Notes: generated from the sequence alone by a model not told the origin. A stretch of DNA of 64,000 nt from a virus (IMGVR_UViG_3300046004_002544:1040-65039), one strand, 5' to 3'; positions 17,495 to 31,425 are shown, counted from the first letter of the stretch. Made by a program: numbers and translations.

Positions 17495-19285
17495 TTATTC
17501 GCAGGACCTCCGACCGGTCGTCGGGTCCCATTCGCATGACGGCCCGGAGCCTTCCGTCTGGAGGAGCCGGCCAGCGTCCCGCAGGTCATCGGGGAAGGGC
17601 AGGTCCGCCGGTTCGAACTCCTCGCGGAAGAGGCCAGCGCGCTTTCCGTCCTTGTTGAAGGTCGTGCAGCCCTTGGCCCCGCCTTCGTAGGCCATGTCGT
17701 ACAGGCCGCAGAAGTCCTCCCAGGGCATCGAGCCGTCCACGTTGACCGTCTTCGAGACCGCGCTGTCGATGTGCCTCTGGGCCGTTGTGAGGACCCCGAT
17801 GTGCTCGACAGCCGACACCTCGCCCATGCTCGCCCGACGGCCCCTGACGTCCAGGAAGCCAAACCCGTGGTCGTACAGGGTGACCCGCTCGCGCCCGCCG
17901 TCCATGATGATCCAGCGCTCCTGGCCGTACCGGTAGACCGGCTCGATGGAGGAGCTGATGTTGTCGGCCGACAGGGAGATGGTGCCGGTCGGCGCGATCG
18001 AGGTCAGGTGGGAGTTCCGCAGGCCTTGCCGGCGGATGCGCTGCTGGACGTCAAAGTCCAGGGTGCGGAAGAACGCCCCGCGGCAGAACAGGTCGACGTC
18101 GAACAGCTCGAAGCTGCCCTTCTCGACGGCCAGGTCCGAAGAGGCGATGTAGCACTCGCGGGTGAGGCGGTGCAGGACAGCGTCTTCCATGGTCAGGAAC
18201 TCAGGCGACCCGTAGGGCAGGCCACAGGCCTCCAGGGCGTTCGCCAGGCCGGTCACACCGATGCCCATCCGGCGCTTGCTCTTGGCCTCGCGCTCCTGCT
18301 CGGGCAGCGGATACAGCGCCCGGTCGACCACGTTGTCCATGGCGCGCACGACGGAGGGCACGTCGGCCGCCAGGGCTTCCAGGTCCAGCGCATGGTGGTT
18401 GGAGCCATAGACCGGCACCAGGTAGGCAACCAGGTTGAAGGACCCGAGGAGGCAGGCGCCGAAGGGCGGCAGGGGCTGCTCGCCACAGGGGTTGGTCGCC
18501 TCGATCTCCTCGCAGTACCAGAGGTTGTTGCGCCGGTTGATCTGGTCCATGAAGAGCACGCCAGGCTCGGCCCAGTTCCAGGTCGATCGCATGACCTCGT
18601 CCCAGAGCTCGCGGGCGTCGACCGTGTCGTACACCTCGCCCTCGAACTTCAGGTCGAACGGCCGGCCGGCCGCCTTGGCCTCCATGAAGTCGTCGGTGAC
18701 CCCGATGGACATGTTGAAGCCCTGCAGCACGCCTGGCTCGTGCTTGGCGGTCACCCACTCTCGAATGTCGGGGTGCCAGATGGGCAGCACACCCATCTGG
18801 GCGCCCCGCCGGTTGCCATAGGAGCTCGTGGCGCCACAGACCCCGTCGAAGATGGGCATGAAGCTCAGGGGCCCGCCGGAGCGGCTCATGAGCTTCTTGA
18901 TGAGGGCATTCCGCGGCCTCAGGTGCCCAAACCCGTAGCCGATCCCACCGCCCATCCGCATGGTCGCGGCGGCCTGTTCGGCCCGGTGCATGATGGAGGA
19001 CTGCTCGGGGTTGTCGCGGGCGACGAAGCTGTCGGGGATGTTCCCGGACACGTAGCAGTTGTAGGGGGTGACCGCTTTGGGGCAACCCATGGCCGCCTGG
19101 ATACGGCCCGCAGGCATGAAGCGCTGGCCCAGGAGAACGTCCAGGAACCGCCCGCCGTGTCGGTCGTCGTCCTGCAGGGCGGTAGCGACACGGCGCATGG
19201 CCTGGTCGAACGTCTCGCCGGGCAGCCGGTATTTCTCGGCGTGGATGCGATCGGCGTAAGCGGTCTTTGGGCCGTGGTGGCTCAT
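17495..19285 (-). CDS. nrdJ: Ribonucleotide reductase, class II (B12-dependent)
   Basis: 'FMPAGRI', 'YNCYV', 'RRGAQMG', 'ATNPCGEQPL', 'IAPTGTIS', C-terminal Cys pair (CEWD...SCE). No beta subunit gene in the window. Confidence 0.88.
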   Translation of the reverse strand: MSHHGPKTAYADRIHAEKYRLPGETFDQAMRRVATALQDDDRHGGRFLDVLLGQRFMPAGRIQAAMGCPKAVTPYNCYVSGNIPDSFVARDNPEQSSIMHRAEQAAATMRMGGGIGYGFGHLRPRNALIKKLMSRSGGPLSFMPIFDGVCGATSSYGNRRGAQMGVLPIWHPDIREWVTAKHEPGVLQGFNMSIGVTDDFMEAKAAGRPFDLKFEGEVYDTVDARELWDEVMRSTWNWAEPGVLFMDQINRRNNLWYCEEIEATNPCGEQPLPPFGACLLGSFNLVAYLVPVYGSNHHALDLEALAADVPSVVRAMDNVVDRALYPLPEQEREAKSKRRMGIGVTGLANALEACGLPYGSPEFLTMEDAVLHRLTRECYIASSDLAVEKGSFELFDVDLFCRGAFFRTLDFDVQQRIRRQGLRNSHLTSIAPTGTISLSADNISSSIEPVYRYGQERWIIMDGGRERVTLYDHGFGFLDVRGRRASMGEVSAVEHIGVLTTAQRHIDSAVSKTVNVDGSMPWEDFCGLYDMAYEGGAKGCTTFNKDGKRAGLFREEFEPADLPFPDDLRDAGRLLQTEGSGPSCEWDPTTGRRSCE

Positions 19286-19387
19286 GTAGCTCCTCAATGG
19301 TCAGCAGGGACGGAAAAGGGCGGGGCCCGAAGGCGCCCGCCCGTGCTCTCGATGATAACTCTCTGGGAAGTCGAGTCGAGCCGACGC

Positions 19388-20277: not shown

Positions 20278-20718
20278 CTAGACTTTTCCTGCCATTGTTG
20301 TGAGAATTGTCGACGCACTGGCATATGGGTCGATCTTGTTGAGGGCGTCCAGTTCGGTGACGGTCAGCCTGCGCTCCAGCAGGGCCTCAGAGGCCGCACC
20401 GTCCACCAGGTAGTGCCGCCGCTTACCTTCGCCCTCATAGCGGATCAGAACCCAGTGCCTGCCACCTGCCCGCGTCCGGCGGAGAGCACGTCGCACTTGG
20501 GCGGGTGTGATGTCGACCCAGGCATCTCCGCACTTGAGGACGCGGGCCACCTTCAGCTCGCACCAGAAGGTGCCGCCCCCGATACACCCCTCGACGTCCG
20601 CGGTGCCGACGGCCACGCAGTTCTCGATCCGGATGACGTCGTGATAATCGCCAAGCAGCATGCCTGGGTTGGGCTTCAGCCAGGCCCACAGAGAGGCTTC
20701 TCGGGAGCGGTCGGCCAT
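20278..20718 (-). CDS. PD-(D/E)XK nuclease, Holliday-junction resolvase / VRR-NUC-like
   Basis: 'RIEN...GTADV...FWCELK...ITPAQ'. Confidence 0.72.
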   Translation of the reverse strand: MADRSREASLWAWLKPNPGMLLGDYHDVIRIENCVAVGTADVEGCIGGGTFWCELKVARVLKCGDAWVDITPAQVRRALRRTRAGGRHWVLIRYEGEGKRRHYLVDGAASEALLERRLTVTELDALNKIDPYASASTILTTMAGKV

Positions 20719-21209
20719 CAGGTGGACCGGCGCCAGATGTCAACCGTGACGTCACCAAAGGCGAGCCTGTCAGCCGTAGCCCAGAACGGGCTGTTCTCGA
20801 GGAACGGCGTGACCGCATCAACCTGGGCACGCGAGCGGTCCATCCCCGGGTAGGGGAAGGCATGCGCATGGGCGTGGCAGATGTAGGCCTCATCCACCAG
20901 GGCATGCTCCAGGGCATCCAGGGCGATCGTCTGGCCCCCGATGAGCCAGGCGCCGGGATAGGCATGCGCAAAGCGACCGAGGGTCGTGTGGCCCAGCTGG
21001 TGTGAGAGGGTCACGACAGTCTGGCCCTTGAGGGGAGGCATGAGCGCTGCGGTCTTGCGACCAGCGCCCAGGAAGCCTGTCCCGACCTGGGTCAGCATGC
21101 GGAAGACCCGCTTGTCGTCCTTGCCGGTCCAGCGCATGTCGTCGTCAGGCCCGCGGCTGACGAACCCGTCCGCCGACACGACCATGATGAGCTTCAGTCC
21201 TTGGGGCAT
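20718..21209 (-). CDS. Dihydrofolate reductase (divergent)
   Basis: 'LIMVVSADGFV...DMRW...DKRVFR', 'GRKT...PPLKG', 'WLIGGQ'. Confidence 0.78.
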   Translation of the reverse strand: MPQGLKLIMVVSADGFVSRGPDDDMRWTGKDDKRVFRMLTQVGTGFLGAGRKTAALMPPLKGQTVVTLSHQLGHTTLGRFAHAYPGAWLIGGQTIALDALEHALVDEAYICHAHAHAFPYPGMDRSRAQVDAVTPFLENSPFWATADRLAFGDVTVDIWRRST

Positions 21210-21646
21210 TCCATCCTCGCTTGCTGGACGCCCATCTGCGACAGGAAGCCTTCGGCCTCCTGCTGCTCCGAGGCCCAGGAGCTCTCGGTGTTGATGGGCG
21301 GGGTGACCACGCGGGAAATGCCCGCACGGTGGATGACCATGGCGCACCTCAGGCACGGGGCGTCCGTCACGTAGATGGTCCAGCCTGTGACGTCGCTGCC
21401 TGCCTGGGCGATTGCGTTGTCCTCGGCGTGGAGGCTGTACCGGTTCTTGATCTCCTTGTCGAGGATCACGCCCTTGAGGGACTCCTCAAAGTCGCGGGGC
21501 AAGCCGTTATAGCCCCAGGAGACTCGCCGGCCATCAGGGGAGACCACGACGGCCCCCACCTTCTTGTTCCGGTCCTGGCTCCAGGTGGCCACCTCTAGGG
21601 CGATCCCCATCAATCTGGGGTCCCACTTCGCCGTGGAGCGGGTCAC
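21194..21646 (-). CDS. dCMP deaminase family protein
   Basis: 'KVGAVVV...GYNGLP...HAEDNAI...PCLRCA' Zn-deaminase motifs. Confidence 0.88.
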   Translation of the reverse strand: MTRSTAKWDPRLMGIALEVATWSQDRNKKVGAVVVSPDGRRVSWGYNGLPRDFEESLKGVILDKEIKNRYSLHAEDNAIAQAGSDVTGWTIYVTDAPCLRCAMVIHRAGISRVVTPPINTESSWASEQQEAEGFLSQMGVQQARMECPKD

Positions 21647-22503
21647 TTCACCACCTCCGGGCGACAGTGGTAGACCGGCTGGACGGCTTCGGTCTGCAGC
21701 TCCCTGGCCAAGGCCACGTAACCGTCTTTGTCCCGCTCGATCAGACCCAGGCTCCAGTGCGGCAGCTTGGGCGCGTCGTCGCAAGGCGTGGAGCCGAGAG
21801 CCTCCCAGGCCATCTGCATGTGCACCTCGTACAGGTGTGGGTGAGCCAGGGTCACGTGCATGACCCCGAGCTGCACACCGAGGCTGCAGGCCACAGCGTC
21901 CATCAGGAGGGCATGCCCCATGACGTCGTAGGGCAGGCCCACGAAGACGTCACTCGACCGCATGACCAGGGAGGAGTTGAGCCGCCCGTCACGGATCGAC
22001 AGGGAGAAGCCGACCGGACAGGGGACGTTCTTCTGCCCTTGGGCGCCAAGGCCGTCGGCAGCCGGGTCCCACGCTGAGACCCAGACACGCCGGTCGGTCG
22101 GGTTGGCCTCGAGCGCCTGGACCGCCAGAGCGATCTGGTCACGCCCAAAGTGACCTCGCCAGCGGTAGCCGTAGGCCCCGCGGATGGTGAACCCGTCGTC
22201 CTCCACGAAGTCATTCCAGACCGGCGCGTGCTGCTTCAGCCAGGTGACGTCGCTCGAGCCAGACAGGAACCAGGCTACCTCAGCGGCGGCCGTCTTCATG
22301 AAGGTCTTCCGGATGCCACACGTGGGCACGTGACCGTTCCGCAGGTTGAGCGTGAAGGACACCGGGTCCAGCGAGCGGATGCGCTCGCCGGTCCGCTCAT
22401 TCAGCTCGGAGTAGTCGGTCTTCAGGAGACGCATCAGCAGGGTCTCATAGGTCCCCCTGAAGAAGTACGGCGGGTTGAAGGTCGTGAGGGAGGAGCCGCT
22501 CAT
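21643..22503 (-). CDS. Thymidylate synthase homologue, possible dCMP methyltransferase
   Basis: 'YGYRWR', 'VPCP' catalytic Cys, 'RSSDVFVGLPYD' with Asp at the Asn177-equivalent position, 'HLY'. Confidence 0.85.
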   Translation of the reverse strand: MSGSSLTTFNPPYFFRGTYETLLMRLLKTDYSELNERTGERIRSLDPVSFTLNLRNGHVPTCGIRKTFMKTAAAEVAWFLSGSSDVTWLKQHAPVWNDFVEDDGFTIRGAYGYRWRGHFGRDQIALAVQALEANPTDRRVWVSAWDPAADGLGAQGQKNVPCPVGFSLSIRDGRLNSSLVMRSSDVFVGLPYDVMGHALLMDAVACSLGVQLGVMHVTLAHPHLYEVHMQMAWEALGSTPCDDAPKLPHWSLGLIERDKDGYVALARELQTEAVQPVYHCRPEVVK

Positions 22504-23465
22504 CGGGCTCGTCCCATCAGGCCCAGGCGCGCCGCCAGGGCGTCGACCTGCCTGGACAGGGCGGTGAGGTCCCCGTTGTTGTCGAGGTGGTAGTCGGCCA
22601 TCCAGGGCTCAACCGTGCAGGACTCCCGGCCTTCCGGCGAATGCCTGTCTGAGGCGTCGACCCAGACAGCGAAGTCATAGACCTGGGCGAGCTGGCAAGC
22701 CGCCCACTCGCGCCTGGCGCGGAGGCCGACGTAGATGTCCGCCTCGGAGTAGAGCAGGCGGGCGAGGCGCGTCGGGTCCTCGGCGTTGTAGCGGACGATC
22801 TCGTCGTACCAGAGAGCCCGGTGGTTGACCCGGTCATCGAAGCACTCCTCCGCGGTCTGGTAGGCTGGCAGGCCCAGCGAGGCGACGCTGGGCATGATGA
22901 TCTGCTCGGCAGCGATCATACTGGACGACTTCAGGCGCAGGCCATAGCGCTCGGCCAGCATCTCGGCCACCGTGTCCTTACCGTGGCGGGCATGGCCGAG
23001 GATCAGGACGCGAGGCTTGCGGCCGAGGACACGGGGCTTGTGCCGGCGCTCCATCTCGAGGTACAGGTCGCGGACGGATTTGCGGGGCGGGCCGCGCCGG
23101 AGGATGGCAGAGTGGTCCGGACCACGCCAGCCCTCGGGCTTAACCGCATCATGGCCAAGCGAGCCGGGCCGCTTTGACAGCGAGCCCCTGCGCTTGGCCA
23201 TGTTGGCGCGCTGGACTTCGTCCCAGTGCGCCTGCGGATCATAGGCGCCCAGCTCGAAGACGCGCCCGAGGGCGAAGTACGCCATGTCCAGGCAGGCGTC
23301 GATCTGGTCCTCGACGGTCTCGGCGTCGGCGAACTCCTGGACTTCTTCACCCATGGCGGTCAGGAACCAGGCCTTGCGGTCCGGCCCCATCATGGTCGGG
23401 ACGTCCGGGCAAGGCAGCTGCACCACCTCCCGGATGAATTGCCCCACGTCGTCAATCTGGCTCAT
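22500..23465 (-). CDS. MazG/PRA-PH-like NTP pyrophosphatase fused to a deoxynucleotide monophosphate kinase
   Basis: N-terminal 'EEVQEF...DACLDMAYF...WDEVQRANMAK...KPEGW'. C-terminal P-loop 'GHARHGKDT'. Confidence 0.78.
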   Translation of the reverse strand: MSQIDDVGQFIREVVQLPCPDVPTMMGPDRKAWFLTAMGEEVQEFADAETVEDQIDACLDMAYFALGRVFELGAYDPQAHWDEVQRANMAKRRGSLSKRPGSLGHDAVKPEGWRGPDHSAILRRGPPRKSVRDLYLEMERRHKPRVLGRKPRVLILGHARHGKDTVAEMLAERYGLRLKSSSMIAAEQIIMPSVASLGLPAYQTAEECFDDRVNHRALWYDEIVRYNAEDPTRLARLLYSEADIYVGLRARREWAACQLAQVYDFAVWVDASDRHSPEGRESCTVEPWMADYHLDNNGDLTALSRQVDALAARLGLMGRAR

Positions 23466-23527: not shown

Positions 23528-24205
23528 TTATCCTTCGAAGGGGTCGGTGCAGCCAGCGGGCAGCGTGACGATGGCGACGTCGCCCTTGACCACGTAGCCG
23601 ATGCCGTGCTCCTTCTGGAGGAGGTACAGCTGGCTCAGCAGATTGGAGCGGGTGATTGAGAACTCAGCGGTGGCCTCGTGGATGGACCTCGCGCCGTTCT
23701 CGCCGGCCATGAAGAAGGCGAGGACTTCACCACGGCGGCCGGCTCGCTTGACCGGCTTGAGGAGACCCAGCACGTCGGCCTCCTTGCCACCCGTGGACTT
23801 CGTCTCGGAGCCTGCGGCGATGGCGAGCATCGGCACCTCGACACCGAGCGCCCGCATGACCATGGCTGCCACGTCAAAGGAGCGCTGCCAGCTGTTCTGG
23901 CAGGCCTCTTCCCACTTGGCCAGCAGGTTCGCCCGGTGCCAGTCGGGTCGGAACTCATGCGGCGACCGGCACAGGCTGGCGTACTCCGCCGAGATGCGGG
24001 AGACCTGGTGCGCCTCGAAGGAATAGGGGCAGAACAGGGTGACCAGCTTGCCGCCCTTGTCGATCACAAAGACCTGACCCCAACCCAGGTGGGGGCCGTC
24101 GACAACGGACCGGTGAGCCTGGCCCTTGGCGCTCTCGCCGATCATCCAGTAGACCCTGCCGAAGAGCAAGCCGTCGGCGACTTCGACGGGGGGCTCAGCC
24201 GGCAT
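23528..24205 (-). CDS. Hypothetical protein with possible C-terminal winged helix
   Basis: 225 aa. 'RSIHEATAEFSITRSNLLSQLYLLQKEHGIGY' is HTH-like. Confidence 0.55.
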   Translation of the reverse strand: MPAEPPVEVADGLLFGRVYWMIGESAKGQAHRSVVDGPHLGWGQVFVIDKGGKLVTLFCPYSFEAHQVSRISAEYASLCRSPHEFRPDWHRANLLAKWEEACQNSWQRSFDVAAMVMRALGVEVPMLAIAAGSETKSTGGKEADVLGLLKPVKRAGRRGEVLAFFMAGENGARSIHEATAEFSITRSNLLSQLYLLQKEHGIGYVVKGDVAIVTLPAGCTDPFEG

Positions 24206-25092: not shown

Positions 25093-25446
25093 TCAGCCGC
25101 CCAGCGAGCGCGACTCGTAGCAGCCAGCGCGGCGGTCCCATTTGAGGACCCGGATGGGCGCGTCAATGTCATCGACCATCTGCAGGGCGGTGAGCACAGA
25201 CACGCTGAGTGCGATGGCCACCGGGTCCCCGAGGAGCAGCAGGTGGTCCGACGTGAAGTCGAACTGCCCGAGGGCCTCCGTGAGCGTCCTACGGGCCTCC
25301 GTGAGGTCTGTCGGGAGGTTCCCGTAGCCGAGCACGCGCACGAGCTCTCCGAAGGCCCTGGCGGGCTCCAGGTCGAACTTCTCGACCCACTCGCCGCGTG
25401 GGCCTTCGCGTCTTGCCGGCGCCTGTACCACGAAAACCCTGCTCAT
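25093..25446 (-). CDS. Hypothetical protein
   Basis: 117 aa with 'DHLLLLGDPV...LKWDRR', ATGA coupling to the upstream gene. Confidence 0.65.
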   Translation of the reverse strand: MSRVFVVQAPARREGPRGEWVEKFDLEPARAFGELVRVLGYGNLPTDLTEARRTLTEALGQFDFTSDHLLLLGDPVAIALSVSVLTALQMVDDIDAPIRVLKWDRRAGCYESRSLGG

Positions 25447-25871
25447 CTCACCAGCTCCAAATAGCTACGCGCCAGCTTGTCAAACACCTCGTCTGGCCAG
25501 CTGCCCTTCGCCAGATTATATGCCCAGCAAACCAGGCGCACGTTGCCCTCGATGTACCCAAGCTCGTTGTCGATGCGGTCGAGGCTTGGGGCCCAGGGGT
25601 TTTTGTCAGGCCCATCCCACTCAGTGGACAGCGGCAGGCCAGTGACCGAGCAGACCATGGGAGCTATGAGCTCCTCAACCCGCTCGAGGGTTAGGGTGCA
25701 CTCGTGGCCCCTGCGCCTGGCGTTCTTCTGGCAGGCTGCAAATATGGCGTAGTGTGGCTTGGCTTTTCGACGGCGTTTATGCCAGGCAAGCAGACGCTCA
25801 CGATTTGCAGGATCGCGCTGCCAGGCTGCCGAGGTGGCGCGTTTCTTGGCTGCTCGCTCTTCGTCAGTCAT
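25443..25871 (-). CDS. HNH-like homing endonuclease
   Basis: 'CSVTGLPL...PSLDRIDNELGYIEGNVRLVCWAYNLAKG'. Appears less GC3-biased than its neighbours. Confidence 0.75.
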   Translation of the reverse strand: MTDEERAAKKRATSAAWQRDPANRERLLAWHKRRRKAKPHYAIFAACQKNARRRGHECTLTLERVEELIAPMVCSVTGLPLSTEWDGPDKNPWAPSLDRIDNELGYIEGNVRLVCWAYNLAKGSWPDEVFDKLARSYLELVR

Positions 25872-27932: not shown

Positions 27933-30242
27933 CTATTTGCGGTAGCGCTTGCCGCGCCACCCCTCGGCCGCCACAGGGCAACCAGCCGCCCAACCCGGGG
28001 TTCGGGACATGAGCTCTTCAAACTCATCCACGCTGCCGACTCCCTCGTCGACCTCAGCGATCAGCTCGTCGTGGACTGAGAGGATGACGTCGTAGATGCC
28101 ACTCTCATCCGCCTCGAGCATCGCCTCGGCCATCAGGTCGCGGGCGGTAGCTTGGGTGATGTTCTCTACCAGTTTGCCCCCGTAGGTGTCCTGGACGCAC
28201 CATTGCTTGGAGAGCGCGTCGACACCCATGAACAGCAGGACCGGCTTCTCGGAGCCCCAGGGGGTCTTTTTCAGCACCAGGCGCGGGTCGCAGTAGTGCA
28301 GGGCGCGGCCGGATGGCAGGTAGCACTTCAGGAAGCGGCCTTCCACGCGGAAGGTCACCCTGCCGAGCTCGCTGCGAACCTCACGGCCAGGGGAGCGGAC
28401 GGCGGCCACGGCGGCGGCTTCTACGTCCTCCCACATTTGGGCGACTGAGGCGTACTTGGCCCGGTAGACGTCCACGATGTGCTTCATGAGCACCAGCTCG
28501 TGCTTGACCTCGTCGAAGACCAGGTCGTTCTTGGTCAGGCGGACCCGGCGCTGGGCGCCGACTTTGCGGGAGTTTGCCGCAGCGCCTTCCTGGCGCTCAG
28601 GCCAGTAGTATTTATCCAGGTAGGCCGCCAGCTCGGCCCACTTAGGTCCAACGATCCGCCGGCACTGCTCCTCCGTGAAGGTGATCTTGTACTTCCGGCA
28701 CGTGAGCAGGAAGGTGACGAAGCCCATGCCAAACCCGAGGCCCAGGATGGCCTGCTTGCCAAGCTGCCGCTCATCCGGGTGCTTGCCCTTGATGACCTTG
28801 TAGCCATAGATGCCCGTCGCCATGTCGCAATAGATGCAGTCGCCGGACCGGAAGACCTCGAGAGCCTCTTCCTCGCCGGCCAACCACATGACCACACGCG
28901 CCTCGATGGCCGCGTAGTCTGCGACGATCAGGTCTCGACCCTCCGAGGCCATGATGAGCCCGCGGAGCGCCTCCGACAGCAGGCCTATCGCCTCGCCGTA
29001 CAGGGCGCGGATGATTTCGATCTCGCCGGTCAGGATCGTGGAGCAGGCGAGCTCCATATCCTTGATGGTGCCACGCGGGAAGTTGTGAGGCTGGAGGCCC
29101 TTGCCCGACCAGCGCCCGGTCGAGGCGCCGTGGTACATCATCATGTCGCGGATGCGCCCATCGGCGGCCGCGTAGGCCAGGCAGGCCTTGTACTTGGCCG
29201 TCGAGGTGCGGTTCACCTCGCGCACGATCTTGATGACCCTGTGCAGGTCCGCCCGCAGACCAGGCTTGGCCAGGAAGGTGTCCAGCGTGGGCCCCTGCGT
29301 GTCTGGCAGGTCGACGCCCTGGCTTGCAAGCCACAGCTTCACGCCGCTGCGCTGAGAGGCTTTCTCCACTGCGCCGCCGGTGATCGCCTCCAGCTCGCGG
29401 TTCAACCTGGCCGTCTCTCGATCGACGATCCGAAGCGCGGTCTTGGCCATCTTCACGTCGACCCGCACACCGCGCAGGTTCATGGCCTGGTCCATCGCCC
29501 AGATGCGGGACTCGAGGGGGCTCAGGTCAGGCAGGACAGCGCTCAGGCCATGCTCGGAGTCCACGTCGGTGCCACAGTAGGAGAAGAGCTTGCCCAGCTC
29601 CTCGGGGTCCTCGTGCCACAGGAGGCCGTGCTCGAAGTCGTAGCCCAGGTCGGAGAGCTGCCTGTAGGCGTCCAGGTCCGCGCTCTCTTCCCAGGCCTTG
29701 ATGAGCGCCGCCTCGGCCTTCTTGGGCTTGCGAGGCTTGCAGACCTTGAGCATGATCCGCCGGCCTTCGTTGTCCTTCTGGACCTCGAGGCCGAGCGCGG
29801 CGCAGGCAGCGCCAAGGGAGCGGGGCAGGGAGTGTGCGGAGGCCTTGGCCGCCGAGCAGCGCCAGGCCTCTTCCGGAACCGCAGGCCAGCCGTACCGAGC
29901 CACGCAGATGTTGGTCCAGATAGACCGCTCAAAGAAAGCGTTGTGGGCCTCGATGAGGCCACCCAGGGCGAGCCAGACGAACAGGTCGTCCAGGACGTCG
30001 CGGCCTTCCTCAGGAATGCCTAGCCTTGGATATGCGGGGTGCCAGCCGCGTGCAGCTGGCCAATGGGGGAGCCTGACATACAGGCACATCAACTGCGTGG
30101 TCGGGTGCTGGCTGTACTTCCAGGCCCCTTCCTTGAGGATGTCACAGGCCGACCGGGTCTCGAAGTCGACCGTCGCGCGGGGTTCGTTCTCAGAGGCGGG
30201 GCGCGTGCCGACCGATCCGAGCAAGTCTGTCTTGAGGCTCAT
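27933..30242 (-). CDS. DNA polymerase, family A (SPO2-type), with 3'-5' exonuclease
   Basis: Exo motifs 'DFETRS' and 'AHNAFFER'. Motif A 'DYAAIEARV', motif B 'RQLGKQAILGLGFG', motif C 'VHDE'. Confidence 0.93.
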   Translation of the reverse strand: MSLKTDLLGSVGTRPASENEPRATVDFETRSACDILKEGAWKYSQHPTTQLMCLYVRLPHWPAARGWHPAYPRLGIPEEGRDVLDDLFVWLALGGLIEAHNAFFERSIWTNICVARYGWPAVPEEAWRCSAAKASAHSLPRSLGAACAALGLEVQKDNEGRRIMLKVCKPRKPKKAEAALIKAWEESADLDAYRQLSDLGYDFEHGLLWHEDPEELGKLFSYCGTDVDSEHGLSAVLPDLSPLESRIWAMDQAMNLRGVRVDVKMAKTALRIVDRETARLNRELEAITGGAVEKASQRSGVKLWLASQGVDLPDTQGPTLDTFLAKPGLRADLHRVIKIVREVNRTSTAKYKACLAYAAADGRIRDMMMYHGASTGRWSGKGLQPHNFPRGTIKDMELACSTILTGEIEIIRALYGEAIGLLSEALRGLIMASEGRDLIVADYAAIEARVVMWLAGEEEALEVFRSGDCIYCDMATGIYGYKVIKGKHPDERQLGKQAILGLGFGMGFVTFLLTCRKYKITFTEEQCRRIVGPKWAELAAYLDKYYWPERQEGAAANSRKVGAQRRVRLTKNDLVFDEVKHELVLMKHIVDVYRAKYASVAQMWEDVEAAAVAAVRSPGREVRSELGRVTFRVEGRFLKCYLPSGRALHYCDPRLVLKKTPWGSEKPVLLFMGVDALSKQWCVQDTYGGKLVENITQATARDLMAEAMLEADESGIYDVILSVHDELIAEVDEGVGSVDEFEELMSRTPGWAAGCPVAAEGWRGKRYRK

Positions 30243-30611: not shown

Positions 30612-31085
30612 TCACTTGGAAGGCAGCGCAGGCCTGCCCTGGCAGCGGGTCAAGTCTGACCCAGGCGTCGGCGCCTGCGCTCCCAGCCGGATAGCCCGAC
30701 AGGAAAACAGGTAGCCGGTCGCCTCGAGGTCCGCCCTGGTGCGCAAGTCGGGGTGCCGGTTGTCGGCTACCCAGCGGCCGTCGACGACCAGGACAGTGTG
30801 CCAGAGGCCCAGCTCGGTCACGACGATCCAGACCTGCATGCGCTGCCGCCCGACGCCGACCTGCTCCAGGAGGGCCATCTTCTCGAGGACCAGGTCCTCG
30901 CAGTCACCCTGCCAGCCCTGGCGTGACGCCCGAGCCCAGGTATCCGCTCCTGGCCGGTCCTCGCGCCTGATGGCGCGGGCCTCTACGTAGTCGTGCACCT
31001 GCTCCGCGGCGTCTCGCACCGCGAAGGGGTTGCTTGAGTCGACCGCGGCGATCGTGGCCAAGGCCATCAAAGCGGCTACCAGCAT
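30612..31085 (-). CDS. Secreted transglutaminase-like cysteine protease (BTLCP/C93, LapG-like)
   Basis: Signal-like N-terminus MLVAALMALATIAA. 'DTW...GDCED...K...L', 'HTVLVV...VADN' give a Cys-His-Asp triad. Confidence 0.75.
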   Translation of the reverse strand: MLVAALMALATIAAVDSSNPFAVRDAAEQVHDYVEARAIRREDRPGADTWARASRQGWQGDCEDLVLEKMALLEQVGVGRQRMQVWIVVTELGLWHTVLVVDGRWVADNRHPDLRTRADLEATGYLFSCRAIRLGAQAPTPGSDLTRCQGRPALPSK

Positions 31086-31086
31086 G

Positions 31087-31425
31087 TCAGTCCTCGTCCT
31101 CTTCTTCAGGGGCGCACTCGTCGCACTGAGGCTCCCCACCCTCGTTGTCCTCGCCGGCTTCGGACTGCTCGCACCACCACCCGCAGCACGTGCAGAGGAA
31201 GACTTCCTGGTCGATTGCGTCGCAGAAGGCCTGATCGGTCTCCAGCTCAGGATGCCCGATCCGCTCCAGGACGTCCAGCAAGTTGTGTTGGCACTGGCCA
31301 CGCAGCTCCTCAGCCACGTGGGCGGCGACGTCCACCAGCTCCTCGGGCGGGCCATTCCAGCCCGCCCGTTCTACCAGCCGGAGGCGGATGCCATCCGCCT
31401 CCTTGACAGCCCACCAGGTTGACAT
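31087..31425 (-). CDS. Zn-ribbon hypothetical protein
   Basis: 'FLCTCCGWWCE...CDEC'. Confidence 0.65.
   Translation of the reverse strand: MSTWWAVKEADGIRLRLVERAGWNGPPEELVDVAAHVAEELRGQCQHNLLDVLERIGHPELETDQAFCDAIDQEVFLCTCCGWWCEQSEAGEDNEGGEPQCDECAPEEEDED

Follow-up and report, generated by a model that had tools for sequence, protein, structure and literature searches.

Does a phage gene that resembles thymidylate synthase (TS) supply thymidylate, or does it methylate cytosine nucleotides on their way into the viral DNA? This question is raised by a locus in the IMG/VR virus record IMGVR_UViG_3300046004_002544, a linear sequence of 65,039 bp rated as complete by CheckV, of which positions 1040-65039 (64,000 nucleotides, referred to below as the window) were analysed. 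Four overlapping genes on the minus strand of the window, at 20718-23465, encode a fusion of a MazG-like domain with a kinase domain, a TS homologue, a deoxycytidine monophosphate (dCMP)-family deaminase and a divergent dihydrofolate reductase (DHFR). An earlier note on this DNA had read the cluster as a route to 5-methyl-dCMP like that of Xanthomonas phage Xp12. The present analysis supports that reading: the TS homologue is 53% identical to the Xp12 enzyme, shares with it Asn, Pro, Asp and Asp at positions 143, 147, 169 and 177 (E. coli numbering), falls in the same clade and stands in the same gene order. We put the probability that the cassette as a whole encodes an Xp12-type pathway, predicted here by sequence comparison, which builds phage DNA with 5-methylcytosine (5mC) instead of cytosine, at about 75%. 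The cassette is a divergent new example of the known Xp12 strategy, with no new mechanism.

Active site of the thymidylate synthase homologue

The TS homologue matches the Pfam family Thymidylat_synt (PF00303) with 146.5 bits (E 1.1e-42; cut-off 24.3 bits), is the only match to this family in the 65-kb record, and finds its best relative among PDB structures at E 3.1e-29. Genome searches for ThyX and for a C5 DNA methyltransferase found none. The two motifs on which the earlier note had relied lie exactly where it had placed them, RSSDVFVGLPYD at residues 182-193, with Asp193 encoded by GAC at 21925-21927, and PCP at residues 161-163. Their counterparts in solved TS structures, as aligned by HMMER, are RSADLFLGVPFN and PCH, respectively. 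Cys162 is the equivalent of the catalytic Cys146, while Pro163 and Asp193 replace His147 and Asn177, the pair that characterises a canonical ThyA.

Residues kept in the window enzyme (E. coli numbering) are R21, E58, W80, Y94, R126, R127, C146, R166, S167, D169, H207 and Y209, and the positions at which it differs are H147 (Pro), N177 (Asp), Q165 (Met), W83 (Phe) and D205 (His). The TS of Xp12, of Pseudomonas phage PaMx74 and of Rhodobacter phage RcSimone-Hastad differ at the same five positions, but have Leu at 165. Forty-eight related IMG/VR loci (L008-L055) were retrieved by an alignment-driven scan using a four-sequence TS alignment; a single TS protein as query reached one distant giant-virus locus only, at 24% identity. 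In these relatives 11 of the 12 tabulated catalytic positions are invariant. The equivalent of E. coli R127, the second Arg of an RR pair, is Arg in 31 of the 48 and Gln in the other 17.

A MAFFT alignment of 193 rows was made from the window, Xp12, PaMx74, RcSimone-Hastad, the 48 IMG/VR loci, 139 cluster representatives (the best 150 minus 11 shorter than 200 aa), E. coli ThyA and T4 gp42. Pro147 and Asp177 occur together in 159 of these rows, and the pair is therefore a fixed family trait rather than a sporadic variant. At positions 143/147/169/177 the window, Xp12, PaMx74 and RcSimone-Hastad enzymes read N/P/D/D, as do 45 of the 48 related loci, compared to D/T/D/D in T4 gp42 and L/H/D/N in E. 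coli ThyA.

According to eLife 2021 (PMC8670742), positions 177 and 147 of TS are those most associated with cytosine-modified metavirome contigs, and an Asn177-to-Asp change switches the preference of the enzyme from deoxyuridine monophosphate (dUMP) to dCMP. For position 143, NAR 2026 (PMC13326640) reports an acidic residue in hydroxymethylases and a bulky hydrophobic one in ThyA and methyl-forming enzymes, with D169N marking the 5-hydroxy-dCMP synthases. The window enzyme combines a non-acidic residue 143 with a retained Asp169, as in Xp12, whereas enzymes of the gp42 type are acidic at 143 and belong to the gp42 lineage, which lies outside the clade described below. The residue in question (Asn159 of the window protein, 22027-22029) is Asn throughout the Xp12-type clade, the assayed Xp12 methylase included. 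As judged from the sequences aligned here, the two-state rule for position 143 (PMC13326640) does not cover the Xp12-type family with its Asn143.

Relatives of the enzyme and of the phage

Against phage records the TS homologue has 3,644 matches, none of which reaches 60% identity. The best of them form one group, which comprises the Xanthomonas phages Mallos, DoCa10, DoCa5 and Xp12 (53%), the Pseudomonas phages PaMx74, PaMx28, AAT-1 and ZQG1, the Stenotrophomonas phages DLP4, AXL1 and A1432, Janthinobacterium phage Donnerlittchen, a Variovorax phage, and the Rhodobacter phages RcRudolph and RcSimone-Hastad. Identity to the Xp12, PaMx74 and RcSimone-Hastad enzymes amounts to 52-54%. An exhaustive HMMER search returned 12,107 proteins at E <=1e-3, and 132 at E <=1e-30.

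A phylogeny against Xp12-type enzymes, for which the earlier note had asked, places the window TS with Xp12 in two trees and apart from T4 gp42 and ThyA. In the FastTree reconstruction (183 rows, with representatives limited to 240-340 aa) the window sequence groups with two of the IMG/VR loci, L008 and L009 (support 97), and a 74-row clade (support 93) holds the window, Xp12, PaMx74 and RcSimone-Hastad. The quick IQ-TREE reconstruction of 42 chosen rows unites the same four in a 16-row clade (SH-aLRT 91). Neither clade includes E. coli ThyA or T4 gp42, the latter being placed on a very long branch. The placement with Xp12 thus appears good, yet not beyond doubt, the supporting branches being below the 95 star level.

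Functional data are available for members of this group. Co-expression with T4 gp1 in E. coli yielded 5-methyldeoxycytidine (5mdC) for the Xp12 TS homologue and for five of seven metavirome homologues, and the DNA of Xp12 and PaMx74 is said to contain 5mC in place of all cytosine (10.1101/2024.12.05.627091).

At the nucleotide level, a megablast search of the phage collection with the 3.2-kb region found no match, and the kinship is visible in the proteins only. The family-A DNA polymerase (27933-30242) is 54% identical to its counterparts in Rhodobacter phages and 51% to that of Xp12. The rest of the replication module, which includes an SNF2 helicase, a DUF2800/Cas4-like nuclease, a Prim-Pol, an Enc34-type single-stranded DNA-binding protein and a topoisomerase-like protein, fits the same phage group. 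On its protein similarities, the virus is an uncultured siphovirus-like phage and a distant relative of Xp12, PaMx74 and RcSimone-Hastad. The G+C content of the window is ~66%. Its sequence is found in 12 assembled metagenome runs from lake water and wastewater, belonging to 9 studies, and two of these runs may represent the source sample; none of the runs listed is an RNA run.

Organisation and conservation of the cassette

The coupling of the TS gene to genes for a MazG-kinase fusion, a deaminase and a DHFR had been proposed in the earlier note and is confirmed by overlapping junctions and domain matches for all four. ATGA at 22500-22503 is common to the fusion stop and the TS start, and GTGA at 21643-21646, with GGAGG upstream, is common to the TS stop and the GTG start of the deaminase. 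Sixteen nt are shared by the deaminase and DHFR genes, and 1 nt (20718) by the DHFR stop and the ATG of the following resolvase gene. Such overlapping starts and stops suggest that the cassette genes are made together.

Gene presence in the 48 related loci was scored by local tblastn with the window proteins, and the following counts are lower bounds, because the flanks are truncated in 8 of the 48. The MazG domain was matched in 44 loci, a deaminase homologue after the TS in 43, the DHFR in 37 and a homologue of the downstream resolvase in 42, while MazG, TS, deaminase and DHFR occur all together in 33; with such a recurrence of the four-gene cassette, chance is not at issue. The window, Xp12, RcSimone-Hastad and PaMx74 have one gene order in common: polymerase, helicase, a few small genes, MazG-like gene, TS, deaminase, DHFR and a small protein. 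The cassette sits on one strand beside the helicase and the family-A polymerase, as in the definition of an Xp12-type cassette. At the sequence level it has every feature by which membership of the Xp12-type system was judged, and it lacks those of a T4-type hydroxymethylase and of a canonical ThyA. Similar neighbourhoods have been described in metaviromes, where the PRA-PH domain and family-A polymerase are among the commonest neighbour domains (10.1101/2024.12.05.627091).

The MazG-kinase fusion protein

The N-terminal domain of the fusion belongs to Pfam PF01503 (PRA-PH/MazG; E 4.7e-8). Over 117 aa it shares 48% identity with the MazG-like protein of Xp12, whose gene immediately precedes that of the TS; the remainder of the fusion does not align to this protein. 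None of the metal-binding acidic residues of the domain (E40, E41, E44, D56 and D60) varies among 41 homologues. An AlphaFold model of the fusion, based on 41 homologues, has a predicted local distance difference test (pLDDT) score of 91.5, and the best Foldseek match of the MazG domain is DR2231, a MazG-like deoxyuridine triphosphate (dUTP) pyrophosphatase (E 1.6e-5).

According to Foldseek searches with the model, the C-terminal domain has the fold of a P-loop nucleoside monophosphate kinase, the matches being dephospho-CoA kinase, adenylate-kinase-related proteins and phosphomevalonate kinases (E ~1e-3). The nearest ESM Atlas clusters are viral and carry the name 'deoxynucleotide monophosphate kinase family protein' (score 0.95), PHROG 139 (deoxynucleoside monophosphate, or dNMP, kinase) matches the P-loop only, and one homologue of the kinase (P0176) scores 24.5 bits against the DNMK family PF21448, the cut-off of which is 27.1. 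The label of dNMP kinase given in the earlier note is one of fold and family resemblance. We regard the domain as a putative phage dNMP kinase, for which we infer 5-methylpyrimidine nucleotides as substrate; this is the weakest step of the pathway proposed below. In 1982, cells infected by Xp12 were reported to contain 5-methyl-dCMP kinase and 5-methyl-dCTP deaminase activities.

The kinase domain had no match in the Xp12 and Pamexvirus records at E 1e-3. It was found in 21 of the 48 IMG/VR loci: in 19 it is in frame with MazG, in one it is separate, and in one the flank is truncated and a MazG match is missing. A search with the fusion in a collection of 5.8 billion proteins gave 511 matches at E <=1e-3; most of the 120 matches listed cover >90% of the query and they often come from contigs of ~60-65 kb. 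The fusion occurs in at least 100 protein clusters. It is therefore a widespread and common sub-variant of the cassette and not a novelty of this genome, while constituting the one clear difference from Xp12.

Other occurrences of the family were also recorded. Members are present under features annotated as 'thymidylate synthase' in N4-like roseophages, and a viral Atlas cluster of 480 aa has the kinase domain fused to ThyX (PF02511), so that the family is associated with thymidylate synthases of both kinds. A full-length homologue of the fusion (P0182) is named by the sources as a Brucella abortus hypothetical protein and lies on a contig of 60,583 bp. Phages of this group typically have this size, and the contig may therefore be of phage origin within an assembly of bacterial DNA.

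Deaminase and dihydrofolate reductase

The deaminase consists of a single dCMP_cyt_deam_1 domain (Pfam PF00383, E 5.5e-20) with intact HAE and PCxxC zinc motifs. It is encoded in cis with an Asp177 TS, as in the mSCD class, and its best solved relative is 7FH4, the deaminase of PBCV-1 (E 1.3e-16). This chlorovirus enzyme is also the closest structure to the 5mC-selective deaminase mSCD-B5, a protein of 154 aa that comes from a metavirome contig with an Xp12/PaMx74-like neighbourhood (10.1101/2024.12.05.627091). In 30 min mSCD-B5 deaminated 99% of 5-methyl-dCTP versus 4% of dCTP, and the same source gives it no detectable activity on dCMP or 5-methyl-dCMP. Its authors found deaminase genes <=3 kb from the TS for 104 of 149 cases on modified contigs, compared to 17 of 277 on unmodified ones, and propose that such deaminases convert 5-methyl-dCTP to thymidine triphosphate (dTTP), so that a second thymidylate synthase is not needed.

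The DHFR is too divergent for Pfam, which gave no match. It was recognised by PHROG 13578 'dihydrofolate reductase' (E 2.5e-37) and is 41% identical to the corresponding Xp12 protein. As a single sequence it has a weak match in the PDB (E 0.03), whereas with a profile of 24 homologues all of the best 60 of 110 PDB matches are DHFR (best E 5.5e-11). The cassette DHFR of Stenotrophomonas phage AXL1 raised the minimum inhibitory concentration of trimethoprim in E. coli to >256 ug/mL, compared to <1 ug/mL with the empty vector, and is thus a working enzyme (PMC9206674). As the genome has no other thymidylate synthase, the DHFR pays off only if the Asp177 enzyme releases dihydrofolate, which argues for reductive methylation and against hydroxymethylation.

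Proposed pathway

In the pathway that we propose, the MazG-like domain would hydrolyse dCTP to dCMP, emptying the dCTP pool and feeding the TS homologue. By homology to the assayed Xp12 enzyme, the latter is predicted to transfer the one-carbon unit from methylene-tetrahydrofolate to C5 of dCMP and to reduce it, giving 5-methyl-dCMP and dihydrofolate. The DHFR, whose family is functional in AXL1, would return dihydrofolate to tetrahydrofolate. The fused P-loop kinase may then phosphorylate 5-methyl-dCMP, with the host nucleoside diphosphate kinase completing 5-methyl-dCTP, and the family-A DNA polymerase of the phage would incorporate this nucleotide in place of dCTP. The expected benefit is resistance to cytosine-dependent restriction.

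Part of the 5-methyl-deoxycytidine nucleotide pool, probably the triphosphate, may be turned into dTTP by the deaminase, as suggested by mSCD-B5 and with the caveat that 5mC selectivity is polyphyletic; the phage would then need no dUMP-dependent thymidylate synthase. The earlier note had offered incorporation into DNA or deamination of 5-methyl-dCMP as the two possible fates of the product. Both branches have been proposed for Xp12 (10.1101/2024.12.05.627091) and are retained here, but the deamination is shifted to the triphosphate as the more likely substrate, in view of the reported inactivity of mSCD-B5 on 5-methyl-dCMP.

Alternative explanations

Several points weigh against the Xp12-type reading. 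The phage is known only as a metagenome contig, so its chemistry is predicted. Structurally, the MazG domain comes closest to a dUTP-type enzyme, dCTP being the presumed substrate, and the isolated kinase domain matched no Pfam family at threshold, DNMK (PF21448) included. In hhalign comparisons, the fusion profile reached 31% probability with T4 gp1, over a local match of 22 columns in a short C-terminal motif, and 0.5% with the T4 gp56 dCTPase, which amounts to no relation; the kinase as a gp1 homologue and the MazG domain as a gp56 homologue were consequently not upheld. Members of the kinase family also occur fused to ThyX-type synthases, so that the domain may be no more than a thymidylate-type kinase. 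Because Asn143 is not hydrophobic, the methyl assignment rests on identity with the Xp12 enzyme and not on the position-143 rule of PMC13326640. Finally, the other two of the seven metavirome TS homologues tested gave no 5mdC, and 5mC selectivity of deaminases is polyphyletic, with 34 of 194 soluble candidates clearly selective, so this trait cannot be read from homology in the case of the window deaminase (10.1101/2024.12.05.627091).

The main or sole role of the same genes could be to supply thymidine nucleotides, from dCTP through dCMP, 5-methyl-dCMP and 5-methyl-dCTP to dTTP, in a virion whose cytosine is all or mostly unmodified, or partly substituted. Such a route would agree with the near-constant association of the deaminase with the TS (43 of 48 loci), with a genome that has no other thymidylate synthase and with the efficient conversion of 5-methyl-dCTP to dTTP by the characterised homologue mSCD-B5, and the sequence gives no measure of the degree of substitution. 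We consider it unlikely, given that the cultured phages Xp12 and PaMx74 are said to have their cytosine entirely replaced (10.1101/2024.12.05.627091), that a pyrophosphatase fused to a kinase fits an active removal of dCTP, and that the relative AXL1 resists most restriction enzymes with G/C in their sites, its DNA being cut by only 5 of 31 enzymes (PMC9206674).

Two further alternatives concern the nature of the C5 product and the identity of the substrate. A genome carrying 5-hydroxymethylcytosine, as made through T4 gp42, or 5-hydroxycytosine, as through the RB69 enzyme, or a derivative of either, is a very improbable outcome here: the Asn143 is that of the assayed Xp12 methylase and not the Asp/Glu of hydroxymethylases, D169 is kept where the 5-hydroxy-dCMP synthases have D169N (PMC13326640), T4 gp42 lies outside the clade, and the conserved DHFR is sensible only with reductive methyl transfer. 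General Pfam and/or PHROGs scans of 37 open reading frames yielded no glycosyltransferase or Tet/JBP-like enzyme, while an aimed Tet_JBP search was uninformative, its control having matched nowhere. On the other side, Asp177 selects cytosine only and does not fix the product, Asn143 is not the bulky hydrophobic residue tied to methyl products by PMC13326640, and two of the seven tested Asp177 homologues made no 5mdC (10.1101/2024.12.05.627091). Marginally less probable still is an ordinary operon for thymidine monophosphate (dTMP) in a phage with unmodified DNA, where the deaminase would convert dCMP to dUMP, the TS would methylate dUMP, MazG would act as a dUTPase and the kinase as a thymidylate kinase, and the DHFR would recycle folate. 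In favour of such an operon, thymidylate synthesis offers a canonical counterpart for each of the domains, and DR2231, which the MazG domain resembles, hydrolyses dUTP. Fusions of the kinase family with ThyX occur as well, and public annotations of the relatives say 'thymidylate synthase'. This explanation is opposed by the Asn177-to-Asp replacement, stated to switch preference from dUMP to dCMP (PMC8670742), by the additional replacement of His147, by the presence of the Pro147 and Asp177 pair in 159 of 193 rows as a fixed family trait, and by the 5mdC made by the closest assayed relative (10.1101/2024.12.05.627091).

Coordinates and neighbouring genes

Coordinates of the cassette genes, their domains and selected neighbours in the window.
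Feature	Position	Strand	Remarks
MazG-kinase fusion gene	23465-22500	-	321 aa; start taken as ATG 23465, AGGAG upstream
MazG-like (PRA-PH, all-alpha) nucleoside triphosphate pyrophosphohydrolase domain	23091..23465	-	fusion residues ~1-125
P-loop nucleotide-kinase domain, candidate 5-methyl-dCMP (5-methylpyrimidine dNMP) kinase	22500..23018	-	fusion residues ~150-321 and stop codon; Walker A GHARHGKDT
TS homologue, predicted deoxycytidylate C5-methyltransferase (5-methyl-dCMP synthase)	21643..22503	-	286 aa
dCMP-family zinc deaminase, predicted 5-methyl-deoxycytidine nucleotide deaminase	21194..21646	-	150 aa; GTG start
Divergent dihydrofolate reductase	20718..21209	-	163 aa; ATG 21209
RecU/Hjc-like PD-(D/E)XK Holliday-junction resolvase	20278..20718	-	146 aa; last of the overlapping run
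Single-chain ribonucleotide reductase	17495..19297	-	Pfam Ribonuc_red_lgC, E 3.6e-94; downstream of the cassette

The gene that follows the DHFR was considered as a possible nuclease specific for cytosine-containing DNA (T4 EndoIV-like), and this candidate was dropped after the fold search pointed to a RecU/Hjc-type junction resolvase. The best Foldseek matches are RecU/PrfA and Hjc resolvases (E 6e-4), the motif E32, D41, E54-x-K56 is invariant in 26 sequences and the model has a pLDDT of 91.6; the PHROG label 'DNA helicase' for this family looks wrong. The resolvase is probably a neighbour of the cassette and not part of the nucleotide pathway. The ribonucleotide reductase is context, related to deoxynucleotide supply.

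Upstream, the fusion gene adjoins a gene at 23528-24205 (minus strand) for a protein of 225 aa that has no assigned function and no Pfam match and that belongs to phrog_11422 (E 1.8e-57). Homologues of it are found upstream of the cassette in 39 of the 48 related loci and in Xp12, PaMx74 and RcSimone-Hastad, and it may or may not have a role in the pathway. Further upstream, an endonuclease VII/HNH-like gene (phrog_3322, E 6.5e-34) at 25443-25871 (minus strand) is located between a Pam3_gp32-like gene and the SNF2 helicase gene, with an overlap of a few bases with both neighbours. The product of a gene within the replication module, at 30612-31355 (minus strand), matches the Pfam domain of bacterial transglutaminase-like cysteine proteases (BTLCP, E 1e-8).

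Implications

With this locus, the Xp12-type 5mC group would gain a divergent and environmentally recurrent phage, and the current understanding of the mechanism is unchanged. A two-residue reading of a 'thymidylate synthase' gene, together with a check of its neighbourhood, appears to predict the pathway. Genomes of relatives are probably mis-annotated, their gene being recorded as an ordinary thymidylate synthase or even as 'ThyX-like'. The DNA of such phages is predicted to withstand many restriction enzymes, and methylation-aware sequencing of it may give unusual results. The cassette deaminases belong to a class that is now used for direct methylome sequencing, and the MazG-kinase fusion represents a compact candidate enzyme pair for producing 5-methyl-dCTP in vivo without T4 gp1.

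A broader proposal, which we advance tentatively and with somewhat less than even confidence, is that phages with the kinase-fused cassette form a large group, so far unrecognised, whose DNA is fully 5mC-substituted and whose hosts are freshwater and marine Proteobacteria. RcSimone-Hastad, RcRudolph and RDJL Phi 1/Phi 2 would be among them, and the fusion would act as a two-ended gatekeeper. If this is true, one end would destroy dCTP and the other would phosphorylate only the methylated product, and the fusion would give a phage 5-methyl-dCMP kinase its first assignable gene. The kinase domain has no match among the Xp12 genes. The words 'methylcytosine' and 'restriction' are both absent from the RcSimone-Hastad paper, and no report of modified DNA was found in the literature consulted for RcRudolph and RDJL Phi 1/Phi 2 either.

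Comparison with known systems

The 5-hydroxymethylcytosine pathway of T4 comprises the gp56 dCTPase, gp42, the gp1 dNMP kinase, the cd deaminase and the frd DHFR. As in the pathway proposed for the window, dCTP is removed, dCMP is modified by an enzyme of the TS fold with Asp177, and a phage kinase, which should ignore dCMP, then phosphorylates the product. The T4 product is however hydroxymethylated, gp42 has Asp143 and Thr147 and lies outside the clade, and the T4 genes are scattered and unfused, hhalign giving no significant relation to gp56 and a 22-column motif with gp1. In addition, T4 retains a genuine thymidylate synthase. As for the single Asn177-to-Asp change by which a dUMP methylase becomes a dCMP methylase, the window enzyme carries it naturally, whereas the natural family also replaces His147, Gln165, Trp83 and Asp205 and has its own C-terminal tail.

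In the mSCD-B5 cassette, as in that of the window, a single-domain deaminase of ~150 aa (154 aa for mSCD-B5, 150 aa here) is encoded in cis with an Asp177 TS, a PRA-PH domain and a family-A polymerase are nearby and 7FH4 is the closest structure, this likeness being judged by the published description (10.1101/2024.12.05.627091).

RcSimone-Hastad, RcRudolph (both Rhodobacter phages) and RDJL Phi 1/Phi 2 (Roseobacter phages) share with the window a MazG-kinase fusion whose gene immediately precedes that of a Pro147/Asp177 TS, with the deaminase, DHFR and nuclease genes coming next. In RcSimone-Hastad the fusion protein is longer (400 aa) and the record names the TS gene 'ThyX-like thymidylate synthase'. 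Its ribonucleotide reductase is in the position corresponding to that of the single-chain enzyme which adjoins the window cassette, while a two-subunit class Ia enzyme is described for the Xp12 relative AXL1 (PMC9206674).

Compared to Xp12 itself (MT664984), the differences are a MazG-like protein of 257 aa without kinase domain, of which only the first ~117 aa align, protein identities of overall just ~35-55%, and the lack of a nucleotide match by megablast. The two cassettes are alike in order and strand and in their placement between the helicase/polymerase block and the late genes. Both TS proteins, at 53% identity, carry the N/P/D/D signature, and their C-terminal tails, PEV(V/I)x, are similar. 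Identities are 48% for the MazG domain, 37% for the deaminase and 41% for the DHFR, and an overlap of 16 nt between the deaminase and DHFR genes is common to the two phages.

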